The notes under the pieces were generated by a model. It ran no database searches and was not told where the DNA came from. It worked only from the letters and a program-made list of their open reading frames with translations. 64,000 nucleotides of DNA, taken from an uncultured Candidatus Binatia bacterium (GTDB lineage: Bacteria; Desulfobacterota; Binatia; Bin18). Each line of letters starts with the position of its first letter. Within the stretch, counting starts at the first letter, position 1. The DNA is taken from assembly GCA_965200965.1 (NCBI GenBank), contig OZ241744.1, positions 2,304,001-2,368,000 of the forward strand, written 5' to 3'. A program made the position numbers and the translations under genes. Shown here piece by piece: positions 27,682-42,766 of the stretch.

Positions 27682-30600
27682 CTATTCCTGCTCAAAGCCC
27701 TGGCTGGTGAACCTGAGCGTCCGGCTGTTCTCGGTCACTGTACGCACCACCTGCTCTGGAGCGCCGTCAGGAATATCGGCTTCGACCTCCAGGGTCACCC
27801 TGACCCGCGCACCAACCAGGCTGGTAAGATGGGCAATCACCTCCTCTGCAATCTGGCCGGCGTCGCGCCCAACCCGCTCGACATCAAGCGCGACCGTACC
27901 GTAGAAGCGCTTTGGCTGGGGGGGAGCCGGTTCCTGACTGCTGGTCTTCCGGGGACTGCGGCCCTCCGGGCCGTAAGGGGCCGCTTCTTCACCGGCAGCA
28001 GCGGGTCCTTGACTGCCCGCTCTTGTCGTGTGTGGCGCGTCATCCTCCGCCGTCGCCCGTTCAGCGCTTTCGGCCTCAAGCTGCCTGCTGGCTGGCTCGG
28101 GCTTGACCAGCACGAGGGGCGCGTCGGCCCGAGGTGACACGGTCTGTCCGTGGGGCAGCATTTGCCCGGCGCGGAGGCCGCGATAGCGCCGGTTCTGCTC
28201 ATCATAGCTCTCGGCAACAGCGAACCCATCCTGTCGCCAGTTCAGGAGGCCAAGGCCGTCTCTGATCGCGGCGAGCATCACCTCCGGCTCTTTGAGACGC
28301 GGCAGATAGGGATAGCGGGCAAAGTCCTCAACGAGCTGTTTGACCGACACATGGTCGCCGCGCCACAGCGGAACCCTGTCGAGTTCCATCCGCAGGCGCG
28401 CCGCACCCAGAGCCGTGATCAGCCTCTCATCGTTCTTGAGCCTTTTACTCGCCCGGACCGCCAAGGCGTCCTGCCCGGACAGTCTCACCGTCCACCACTC
28501 CAGAGCGGCCTGAGGCGTCTCTTGGGTCGGGGCCAGCACCCACTGGAAGGTTTCCGGCAACCGGGCGTGTACCGCGTCGGACGCCGCGTTGTGCTGGACC
28601 TCGGCCTGCTTGCGCTGCTGCGGAGACAGATTGAGCTCTTCACTCTCGTCACAGATCGACTGCCATGCCAGGCAGGACAGGATCGCCGCGTCAAGGTCTT
28701 GCAGTCGCGTCCTGTCAGCGGCCAGGAACACGAGGGTATTGCGGTACAGCCTGGGCGCGTTCCCGCGTGAAGCAAGTATGGCTTCCGCCGCACCCCGGGC
28801 CGGACTCTCCGCCTCCCGGCTGTGTGGCTGCCGGCGGCCAAGTACGACGAGGCGCGCCTCAAGGTCGTCCGGGACATCCTGGCCGGACTGCGGCAGGACA
28901 TGGACGCCCCTGAAGTCGCCGGCCTGGCGCAGCGCAGCCCGGAGGCGCGCGTCCAACTCCCGCTCGAGCTTGTCCGGTTCACGGCGCAACTGCTCGGCGC
29001 GGTCCTCGGCCAGTTTCATGACAGTCGGCTGGGTGGAGTACCAGTAACGCGAGCCGTCCTGGTAGCCGTCCTGGTACAGGTAGGTTGCCGCGCCGGCCAG
29101 CCGCCTGAGCGCGTCCCCGAACACGGCCGGCGACTCACCCGGCAGCACACAGCCGAGCTTGATGTGACGATCGTCAAGGCCACGCGCCGCGGCGTCCGCG
29201 GTCGGTGCCGAGCCGAGATAGACGGTCCGGGCGACGCGGCGCACGGCCGCCAGCTTGCCCAGGTTTGACGCCTGGCTCTCAATCTGCAACGGCAAGGAGT
29301 TCGGGCCGTCAACATCCTTCTCAATGATCGGTACCCAGTTGTCGGGCAGGTAGCGGGTCAGCTCGGACCGCACCCGCGGGTCGTCTATGGAGACAGTGGC
29401 CGGAAGAATGATCGGATTTCTGTCGCCCTTTTCCCACAGGCTGTGAATGACCGACGCCATGAGGCGCAGCACCCCGCGGGTGCGTTGAAACTTCACCAGC
29501 GTAGACCAGTCCTCATACAGCCGGTCGAAAATTTCCGGATGAATCGGGTAGGCCGCGTGAATGCGCTTCTTGTAGTCCAGGTCACGGCACTCGGGCGGAA
29601 ACTCCTGATGCTGGTTGCGGTACAGCTCGGCAAAGGCTCGCACCACCACATCCCGGTCGGTGCAGCGGGCCGGGTCGGTCAGCGGCTCAAACAGCCGCCG
29701 CCGTACAATTTCAAAACCCTCCTCGGCGTTGGCCGGCTGCCACGCCGCTCCAAGGCGATCGATAACGTTCCCCAGCCGGTCCAGGGCCTCGCGCCCACGC
29801 TGGCCACCGACCTCAACATCGTCCACAAGGGCATGGGGTGAGCCGCCCCCATCCGAGGCTGGCAGGCTGAGCACCAGCAGACAGTTCCTGGCCGCCCTGG
29901 CCGCTTCGGTCAGGGTCTGAGCAAAGGTGAACTGCGTCGCAAAACTCCCGGCCGGCAGGTCGCTCTGGTCATGCAACTGGCGCGCATACGCCACCCACTC
30001 ATCAATCAGGATGAGGCAGGGGCCGTAGGTGTTGAACAGTTCGCGCAGGATATCGCCGGGGTTGGTCGCCTTCTCGTCGTCGGCCTGGATATGGGCAAAC
30101 GCGGCCCGACCGCCGAGCTGCCAGGCCAGCTCACCCCACAGGGTGCGGACCGTCGTGCCGTCGGACTTGGTGGCCGGGTTGCCGGGCGATATTTTGTTGC
30201 CGACCAGCACCACCCGCTTGACGGTCGGCAGCCGGTCCAGACCAGCACCCTGCATGACGCCCTCAATGTCCACCAACTCGCCCGGCGCAATTCCCGAAAA
30301 GAGATGGTACAGGGCCAGCATGGAGTGCGTCTTGCCGCCGCCAAAGTTCGTCTGGAGGGCCACTACCGGATCGCCCTTCCCTCCGCTCAGGTGCCGGACT
30401 GCGCCGGCCAACAGATGTTTCAGGGTGTCGGTCAGATAGGTCCGGCGGAAGAACTCGACCGGGTTTTTGTACTCAGCGCTTCCCTCACCAAGGTGGACCT
30501 GCCACAGGTCAGCGGCAAACTCGGCCTGCTGGTAGTGCCCGCTGGCCACATCGGGGTGCGGCGTGACCACCTCACGCCAGGGTTTCAGGTGGGCCGCGGC

Positions 30601-42200: not shown

Positions 42201-42766
42201 GCGGCTGCGAGCGCATCGTTGGTGAGGATATCAAAAGGGAGCTGAAAGCGGCGGTAGAGCTCATCCTGCCATTGCTCGGCCAAGCTGCCGGGACACACGA
42301 CCAGGCAGCGTTGGATGTCGCCTCGGGCGATCAGCTCCTTGATAAGCAGCCCGGCCATAATGGTCTTGCCGGCACCCGGGTCATCGGCCAGCAGAAAGCG
42401 CAGCGGCTGGCGGGGCAGCATGGCTTCGTAGACCGCGGTGATCTGATGCGGCAAGGGCTCGACAACCGAGGTATGGACCGCCAGCAGGGGATCGAACAGA
42501 TGCGCGAGGCGGATGCGCTGCGCCTCAGACACCAGGCGGAACAGGGCCCCGTCTCCGTCAAAGCTCCACGGACGCCCGCGTTCAACGATCTCAAGCCGCG
42601 CCTCGTCATGACGGTACAGCAAGGCATTGGCCACCTTGCCGCTCGGCGTCTTATAGAACAACTCAAGAGCATCTGACCCGTACCACTGCACGCCGACCAC
42701 AGTCACCACCGCGTCAGGCAGGATGCCGCCCAGGGCGGCCTGCGGGCGAATATCTTCCAGTTTCAC
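39212..42766 (-). CDS. SNF2-family helicase with C-terminal DUF3883 nuclease-like domain
   Basis: ADDPGAGKT, DEAH, TATPH, QRFGRIHRIGQ; GYDIES...FIEVKG. Confidence 0.92.
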   Translation of the reverse strand: MKLEDIRPQAALGGILPDAVVTVVGVQWYGSDALELFYKTPSGKVANALLYRHDEARLEIVERGRPWSFDGDGALFRLVSEAQRIRLAHLFDPLLAVHTSVVEPLPHQITAVYEAMLPRQPLRFLLADDPGAGKTIMAGLLIKELIARGDIQRCLVVCPGSLAEQWQDELYRRFQLPFDILTNDALAAARTGNWFLETNFVIARLDKLARDEDVQHKLTAPDCRWDLVVCDEAHKMAARFFGGQVRYTRRYRLGQLLSGLTRHFLLMTATPHNGREEDFQLFMALLDGDRFEGRFRDGAHTTDVSDLMRRMVKERLLTFDATPLFPERVASTVPYKLSDDEARLYRQVTDYVREEFNRADALKDGKRAGTVGFALTIVQRRLASSPEAISQTLGRRRKRLESRLRELQVLQHGGQAGGLPGGPDFSAEDLEDLEDALEQEVVDAEEEIVDQATAARSRIELEAEIETLRGLEALALGVRRRGRDTKWRQLASLLSEIFTPGGQVAEQTVPYGAGEIPQPTPSPRQKLVIFTEHRDTLRYLQDRVTTLLGRQGAVVVIHGGLGRGERLRVQEVFRYDPEVQVLLATDAAAEGINLQRAHLMVNYDLPWNPNRLEQRFGRIHRIGQTEVCHLWNLVADETREGDVYRTLLDKLERARRALGGQVFDVLGKLFEDRPLRDLLLEAIRYGERAEVRARLTTAVEHALDRSTLRNLLEDRALAQDVMDASRVHGIRADMERAEARRLQPHYIASFFHEAFRQLGGTVRQRETRRYEISHVPEAVRHRPVGSGEPVLSRYERIAFDKSLVAQPGRPLAAFICPGHPLLEAVIDLTLKRHRDLLTRGTVLVDERDAGLRPRVLFSLEHAIQDASQTPRGDRRIVSKRVLYVELDAEGVTRHVRYAPYLDYRPLAAGEPDPAAILARPECSWISPKLERQAHTYAVASFVPEHLEEVRGARLGLITRTEAAVRERLGKEITYWDRRAEQLKLQERAGKTGARLNSDEARKRADGLQARLQKRLEELRLEAQLSPLPPVMLGGLVLVPKGLLEAMSGRQTPVSGAAADTGAVAARARAIVVEVERGLGFEPTDREFEKLGYDIESRVPATGKLRFIEVKGRVSGAATITATRNEILYSLNKPEDFILAIVEFLEGGLHRVHYLRRPFQREPDFGVTSVNYNFAELLARAGEPA

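Follow-up and report, generated by a model that had tools for sequence, protein, structure and literature searches.

Hma, first named in PMC8565338 (Payne 2021) and described further in PMC11232893 (Liu 2024), is the same system as the Type-1 BREX-related (BR) system of PMC12839542: both share the gene order helicase-nuclease, DUF1156 methylase and HEPN-DUF499 ATPase, and Type-1 BR is defined there by three genes, with frequent HEPN fusion and, as in Hma, no DUF3780. The HmaA of Halomonas alone blocks T4 and is non-toxic, a need of Hma for self-methylation could not be shown by Liu 2024, and the Hma locus has been termed an insertion hotspot (PMC11232893). Embedded genes were reported in 931 of 1485 Hma systems by a survey in which HEC-01 and HEC-03 were named, HEC-03 guarded E. 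coli without Hma provided that both of its genes were present, the tested HEC-01 member gave no protection, and a backup hypothesis was put forward for the embedded modules, the significance of embedding being left open (10.1101/2024.01.29.577857). Pairs of an OLD-type ATP-binding cassette (ABC) ATPase and a nuclease have also been found in at least 1242 BREX or BR taxa, likely as backups (PMC12839542). Here we analyze a stretch of 64,000 nucleotides (nt) from an uncultured Candidatus Binatia bacterium (contig OZ241744.1, positions 2,304,001 to 2,368,000; hereafter the window), in which positions 27682-42766 hold an Hma operon with HEC-01, HEC-03 and, as a third module, an ATPase that has lost its nuclease to a deletion. 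We think it probable that these modules are independent, co-transcribed defences, and that HEC-03 was the last to arrive, by recombination with another Hma allele. The genes are listed below, where L numbers denote loci, as G and X numbers will denote genomes and sequencing runs, and aa stands for amino acids.

42766-39212, minus strand: hmaA, 1184 aa, SNF2 helicase with a C-terminal NOV_C (DUF3883) PD-(D/E)xK nuclease; PADLOC HmaA E=0, 1628 bits over residues 1-1182; Pfam SNF2, Helicase_C and NOV_C.
39178-37691, minus strand: ATPase-1, the module 1 ABC ATPase, PD-T4-4/PDC-M47-like, 495 aa; partial PADLOC matches to PD-T4-4_A (E=9e-35) and PDC-M47A (E=9e-27).
37694-37581, minus strand: module 1 nuclease remnant, 37 codons, from alignment with intact 157-aa homologues.
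37566-34786, minus strand: hmaB, DUF1156 N6-adenine-type methylase, 926 aa; PADLOC HmaB E=0 in two stretches; Pfam DUF1156.
34772-33567, minus strand: ATPase-2, the HEC-01 ABC ATPase, 401 aa; PADLOC PDLC04144 E=1e-178, full length.
33570-32989, minus strand: HEC-01 TOPRIM-like DUF4276 nuclease (HEC-01B), 193 aa; PADLOC PDLC04143 E=2e-55; Pfam DUF4276.
32972-32946, minus strand: scar reading frame MATTEELF, 8 codons, from comparison with L018/L039, L042, L108 and L022.
32946-31570, minus strand: ATPase-3, the HEC-03 ABC ATPase with C-terminal DUF3696, 458 aa; PADLOC PDLC04148 E=8e-157, full length; Pfam DUF3696.
31573-31082, minus strand: HEC-03 PIN-domain protein, 163 aa; PADLOC PDLC04147 E=4e-39 over residues 5-158.
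31080-27682, minus strand: hmaC, Swt1-like HEPN and DUF499 ATPase, 1132 aa; PADLOC HmaC E=0; Pfam HEPN_Swt1 and DUF499.

The original prediction, made from the sequence without database searches, had described nine co-oriented, tightly spaced open reading frames (ORFs), and 9/9 are present on the minus strand in the order it gave, separated by gaps of 1-33 nt or overlapping by 1-4 nt, with the 42 nt before ATPase-3 filled by the 8-codon ORF and with refined starts for the second ATPase (34772) and the DUF499 gene (31080). It was also right in calling the core restriction-like and BREX-related: the core is the known anti-phage operon Hma, alias Type-1 (DUF499-centred) BREX-related, matched by the PADLOC HmaA, HmaB and HmaC models, and its own genome holds one full copy each of hmaA, hmaB and hmaC (tblastn), co-oriented in a single locus. 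The cargo does consist of ABC-ATPase/nuclease defence modules, namely HEC-01, HEC-03 and a PD-T4-4/PDC-M47-like pair; three ABC ATPases are indeed there (all with Pfam AAA_15/AAA_21 matches), while the third module is incomplete, its nuclease lacking 120 of 157 codons. The HEC-01 ATPase is 85% identical to its L039 orthologue and the HEC-03 ATPase 79% and 76% identical to those of L108 and L042, and the identity of the PIN protein comes from its PADLOC HEC-03 match only, Pfam being silent on the 163-aa protein. Motifs are intact in hmaA (GAGKT 131, DEAH 231, the D in GYDIES 1091 and IEVKG 1107) and in the HEC-01 DUF4276 nuclease (E and DxD), the acidic motifs are present in the HEC-03 PIN protein, and hmaC carries the HEPN motif RNRWAH. 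GC content at third codon positions is 0.63-0.69 in the nested genes versus 0.78-0.80 in the core.

Compared with published examples, the window shares the ABC ATPase plus TOPRIM and ABC ATPase plus PIN pairs of HEC-01 and HEC-03, with full-length matches, in the same orientation and within Hma, but here both occupy one junction, four genes in all (10.1101/2024.01.29.577857). The survey in that source capped a junction at three genes and left out loci in which an hma gene was repeated or a pseudogene, and therefore such stacks and scars would tend to escape it. Relative to described Hma the window further differs in an HmaB that lacks a conserved 41-residue block and in a mosaic hmaC. We found no DUF3780 among the locus ORFs with Pfam, as the original prediction had remarked; this is no anomaly, since its absence is normal for Type-1 BR/Hma (PMC12839542). 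The four-gene restriction-like system that does carry DUF3780 (Type-2 BR; NCBIfam NF042962-4) has the DUF499 ATPase, DUF1156 methylase and SNF2 helicase in common with the window, which however lacks both DUF3780 and an N-terminal HKD/PLD nuclease on the helicase, and this identity was rejected with NCBIfam scores far under the cut-offs (147.5/1200, 91.4/1000 and 150.7/1100). Three further candidates were set aside. HEC-02 (ATPase plus NERD) matched only through a 58-residue stretch of HEC-02A (E=7e-13), with no HEC-02B match in 11 partner sequences, and an origin of the three ATPases as local duplicates was rejected on a mutual identity of ~30%, confined to the C-terminal ABC core. PARIS consists of AriA and the DUF4435 TOPRIM protein AriB and responds to Ocr; in PADLOC its AriA models scored far below the HEC models and the partners had no AriB match. 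We note that PADLOC assigns the A/B labels of PDLC04143/04144 and PDLC04147/04148 the opposite way round from the paper, whose A is the ATPase, so that PDLC04144 is labelled HEC-01B.

The evidence on how HEC-03 was gained comes from comparison with an orthologous locus, L018/L039, whose flanks are 91-92% identical to those of the window and whose order is hmaA, ATPase-1, intact partner, full hmaB, HEC-01 and hmaC, with no HEC-03. In this locus hmaC starts, after HEC-01B, exactly where the window has the scar ORF. The first 11 nt of the scar are the resident hmaC start, its last 15 nt are the HEC-03 leader of L108 and L042, and its stop overlaps the HEC-03 ATPase start; in L042 and L108 this leader comes behind the end of hmaB or of an hmaB-like sequence, and in L022 it is hmaB that ends in EELF and overlaps this ATPase start. 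The window hmaC is itself a mosaic, as sliding identity places its first ~280-315 nt (to about window 30800-30770) nearer to L042/L036 and the remainder nearer to L039, with informative sites of 68/96 versus 106/349 against L042 and 71/101 versus 98/330 against L036, and in both comparisons 0/2000 permutations reached the statistic. Fragments of a similar kind occur elsewhere: L042 has a 68-codon fusion of hmaC head and hmaB tail between HEC-03 and HEC-01, in L067 two copies of module 1 flank an hmaB head, and in L108 HEC-03 lies away from Hma and still ends in eight hmaC codons. Taken together these observations suggest that HEC-03 was likely added last, through recombination with another Hma allele. 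An L039-like ancestor (hmaA, ATPase plus nuclease, hmaB, HEC-01, hmaC) would have received donor DNA made up of a post-hmaB leader, HEC-03 and hmaC, with one end anchored by a homologous crossover ~300 nt into hmaC and the other fixed by an illegitimate join just past the resident hmaC start; the outcome would be an operon that retained HEC-01, acquired HEC-03 and had the 5' end of its hmaC replaced by the donor's, and the effector and methylase deletions would have arisen later, separately and in different strains. We favor such homology-anchored uptake because a mosaic hmaC and a scar at the old start are its expected leftovers.

Several points weigh against this history. The scar is just 11 plus 15 nt, below the detection limit of profile searches, and is recognized only through close relatives; the three-sequence mosaic test gives no direction, so that the recombinant could instead be L039; and L036, which occupies the same chromosomal site without HEC-03, carries the L042-type hmaC head. 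Moreover, a tandem duplication of the whole Hma operon, followed by a deletion running from the start of the first hmaC to the end of the second hmaB, would leave the same scar with no homology-anchored uptake at all, and would yield the head-plus-tail fusion seen in L042. More than one hmaB is present in several genomes (G004, G007), and hmaA-derived sequence lies within the hmaB-hmaC (B-C) interval of L100, both of which fit with such duplications. However, a tandem origin predicts a wholly donor-type hmaC, whereas the window hmaC reverts to the L039 type after ~300 nt, and a full tandem Hma was not seen among the loci examined, which leads us to regard this route as quite improbable. Homology-anchored uptake also has a parallel in type VI secretion system (T6SS) effector-immunity arrays, where sequential displacement by homology-facilitated illegitimate recombination likewise involves one homologous anchor and one illegitimate join, keeps the old cargo and leaves remnants between modules; Hma differs from these arrays in that whole defence pairs are kept, the remnant is a core-gene head and the anchor in the window is the downstream gene (PMC5361080). 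Small core-gene pseudogenes are described as recombination remnants in P2/P4 hotspots too, where defence pseudogenes are rare, unlike here (PMC13586616). For Hma scars we found no describing paper in a literature search that had most subscription papers outside its reach, and the main text of 10.1101/2024.01.29.577857 has none of the terms recombin-, truncat-, fragment and remnant.

Two in-frame deletions, which together with the scar ORF and the nature of the remnant went unseen in the original prediction, mark the rest of the locus. The module 1 remnant is the partner of ATPase-1 minus 120 of its 157 codons, with the first 18 and last 19 codons kept (junction 37641/37640) and a QA dipeptide repeated at both ends of the deletion in the protein homologues. 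The 157-aa partner is intact in L039 and P0002-P0010 by alignment, and follows ATPase-1 in 9/9 other full-length homologues. Intact homologues show a C-D-Y and E-x-K motif, and the model of one (pLDDT, the predicted value of the local distance difference test, of 89.9) finds its best matches among PD-(D/E)xK nucleases, at modest Z of 5-6.6 and root-mean-square deviation of 3-4 over 100-130 aligned residues; the deletion removes the PD-(D/E)xK residues. OLD-ABC ATPases are paired with a PD-(D/E)xK nuclease in systems of the PD-T4-4, PDC-M47 and WonAB type (PMC12137116; PADLOC), and in relatives the module 1 ATPase likewise precedes a small PD-(D/E)xK-fold protein, but the matches are partial and weak, with the best PADLOC stretches of ATPase-1 spanning only its C-terminal core and the PDC-M47B match to the partner being weak and limited to 8/11 members, and so we assign no named system, the nuclease moreover being deleted in the window. 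ATPase-1 itself has an open frame and intact motifs, yet is orphaned. Module 1 is predicted to be inactive, because both genes are required in the tested pairs HEC-02, HEC-03 and WonAB (10.1101/2024.01.29.577857; PMC12137116). A toxin-antitoxin logic, in which the effector is lost and the ATPase kept, was not adopted, as the WonAB data speak against simple sequestration within this family (PMC12137116). A separate locus, L111:8447-10695, which lies apart from a full Hma, has ATPase-1, an intact partner and then an 85-residue hmaB head.

The second deletion takes 41 codons out of hmaB at 35421/35422 (residues 706-746 in L039 numbering), with no microhomology at the joint (both=0). All 41 residues are kept in 121 of the 122 homologues that span the site and 40 of them in the remaining one (16 further loci did not span it), and across 39 homologues 16 of the 41 deleted positions are conserved at 90% or more. 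In the HmaB model the deleted block spans a helix and the last part of a strand, with pLDDT ~90, and this strand would be the last of the methylase fold. We found no solved structure for HmaB by sequence or by Foldseek at E<=0.001. HmaB is likely impaired, judging from the conservation of the lost block; against this, both catalytic motifs (DPFAGGG and DPPYY) survive and the model has low confidence in the catalytic core (mean pLDDT 68, predicted template modelling score 0.40), and the impairment is thus only putative. A natural 41-residue HmaB deletion beside an intact HmaA offers a ready test of whether Hma needs self-methylation. Other observations on hmaB concern its variability and spread. 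In run X7, 289 nt inside hmaB (window 35856-36146) are swapped for 280 other letters, within the variable region that probably contains the target-recognition domain. Full-length hmaB without nearby hmaA or hmaC is found in L017/L043 (G007:C1 about 627000-629850) and other loci, that of L017 lying between two long secreted-type ORFs, and such orphans were frequent among the loci fetched; a lone broken hmaB 5' fragment (residues 5-47, 63% identity) also lies at G000:C1:2033518-2033646 in the same genome as the window.

Contigs from sequencing runs allowed us to reject an assembly artefact for both deletions: those of X1, which may be the source sample, equal the window with zero differences over 30317-35850 and 37450-40890 and span both joints, X2 spans the hmaB deletion, and X4, a run of a different study, covers the partner deletion gap-free. 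Contigs of X7, X4 and X11 (three other studies), a few % different from the window, have 123 extra letters at the hmaB joint and skip 33053-33584, with the loss of 518 of the 582 nt of HEC-01B, and in X7 and X4 the hmaB-restored and HEC-01B-deleted states lie on one contig. The HEC-01B deletion joint recurs in X8, and is a clean loss that keeps the HEC-01 ATPase; this ATPase without HEC-01B in related strains mirrors the orphan ATPase-1 of the window. The partner deletion is common to X4 and the window, whereas the X7 and X11 contigs diverge from the window precisely at 37641, as would fit an intact partner; the coverage of X13 is too small to show its state. Slots are therefore pruned differently in different strains, since X7, X4 and X11 keep the hmaB segment and lose HEC-01B, in contrast to the window. 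Separately, X8 has a joint from 39202 to 37372 that places the first 65 hmaB codons before the ATPase-1 leader; this is absent from X7, X4, X11 and X13, and may represent a second copy of module 1 in tandem, marked by an hmaB-head scar.

These losses could also be taken to mean that the entire locus is a relic that selection no longer maintains and that plays no part in defence. The two deletions in the window and the different ones in related strains are compatible with this, as are frameshifted or broken Hma genes in the congeners L016 and L018 and the family member L024, where the frameshifts may be assembly errors. But hmaA, hmaC, HEC-01 and HEC-03 are full-length with catalytic motifs present, both window deletions preserve frame and downstream coupling, and the replaced hmaB segment of X7 is as expected for specificity turnover, and a relic state thus appears very unlikely to us. 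By analogy with Halomonas HmaA, the HmaA encoded here would need neither HmaB nor HmaC to block phage, using its helicase and C-terminal nickase, and an impaired HmaB would be tolerated if HmaA is independent of self-methylation. The HEC-03 ATPase would sense infection and turn on the PIN RNase, and HEC-01 may work likewise with its TOPRIM nuclease, with the caveat of the one unprotective member; it weighs against any such account that the functions of all genes of this locus are assigned from sequence.

The original prediction held that both junctions of the core act as cassette slots, and this is borne out across 79 loci from genomes (best 80 of 491) and 59 from metagenomes (best 80 of 679). 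Counting a slot as occupied when the junction exceeds 330 nt, we found 72/91 hmaA-hmaB (A-B) and 44/91 B-C junctions occupied, and among 71 loci with all core genes 60 had at least one occupied slot and 29 had both. The same complete loci hold no ABC ATPase in 47 cases, one in 18, two in 4 and three in 2, the last being L067 and L041, of which L041 may hold a split gene; occupied slots are thus the rule, and three ATPases are uncommon and not unique. Downstream core-gene heads were detected by profile search in 10/116 occupied slots, with 7 hmaB heads all in A-B and 3 hmaC heads all in B-C, and were present in 8/38 slots longer than 2.5 kb versus 2/78 shorter ones (Fisher p=0.002). This count excludes matches in L045 (hmaB itself, with a frameshift), in L140 (on the minus strand, E=0.019) and in L100 and L113 (unclear matches to the hmaA tail), and reversed-sequence controls gave no head match. 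Cassette families were faithful to their slot in 9/9, 10/10 and 4/4 cases. Combined with the scar and mosaic in the window, we see about an even chance that Hma operons are recombinase-free accretion platforms, on which a cassette would pass solely from one Hma allele to the like slot of another, through homology-anchored illegitimate recombination, the resident cassette being kept and a core-gene head left as a scar, with nucleases then pruned by clean deletions that differ between strains. To be set against such stacking are the 106/116 occupied slots with no detectable scar, the non-independence of the loci as samples and the greater amount of sequence that longer slots offer, and the B-C slot of L100, which holds an inverted module 1 ATPase below the length filter of the slot count. 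If true, the platform would supply a mechanism for embedding and make the order of acquisition readable from sequence. Homologous loci were tabulated alongside the PADLOC run, as the original prediction had proposed, and gene content between the core genes does vary, while the Hma operon and its nested modules turn out to be already catalogued, and embedding as well as the backup idea can be read in Payne 2024, Liu 2024 and PMC12839542. The remaining value is evolutionary: a locus with an HEC-03-less orthologue, a scar, an hmaC crossover and strain variants makes a clean worked case of stacking and pruning.

The original prediction went further and proposed a composite system with three layered guards, in which the nested ATPases would detect phage inhibitors of Hma, or its inactivation, and set off their nucleases as a backup. 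ABC ATPase pairs are indeed more common than any other Hma cargo, and anti-defence proteins elicit a response from PARIS, PrrC and OLD (10.1101/2024.01.29.577857; PMC12839542), and both the tight translational coupling at the locus and the slot fidelity of each cassette family would suit such a role. On the other hand, of 24 HEC-03 matches in 300 genomes of the class we fetched 11 neighbourhoods, and 6 of these had no hmaB or hmaC match within 20 kb; ABC ATPases are missing from 47/71 complete loci; the window has lost the module 1 effector and related strains have lost HEC-01B, while the core persists; and the published descriptions, as far as available, give no trigger for HEC-01 or HEC-03. 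In this genome three layered guards are not supported, with module 1 lacking its effector and the methylase its conserved block, and we consider a guard function for the nested ATPases unlikely. We prefer to view the modules as independent because HEC-03 works in E. coli without Hma, HmaA suffices alone and more than half of the HEC-03 neighbourhoods fetched stand apart from Hma. In L177-L180, HEC-03 outside Hma is followed by a conserved third ORF (start MLKYPKTP in L177-L179 and L181), which may make up a three-gene variant.

Runs X3 and X4 are labelled sponge metagenome, which makes a sponge-associated Binatia the likely host, and no RNA data set was among the runs listed with matching sequence. 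The flanks of the locus are metabolic by Pfam, with a flavin monooxygenase on one side and a CoA-transferase on the other, and the interval between these two is variable across the genus, with Hma in G000, G005 and G007 and other genes in G006 (L109-L110, L112). In a promoter and terminator scan promoter-like sites were at chance level and terminator-like sites numbered 17 versus 11.9+/-4.4, and no tRNA gene lies within the 64-kb window. Elsewhere in the window, positions 48051-49112 hold a secreted-looking 353-aa ORF without a Pfam match and positions 49682-50944 encode a HEAT-repeat protein of 420 aa.

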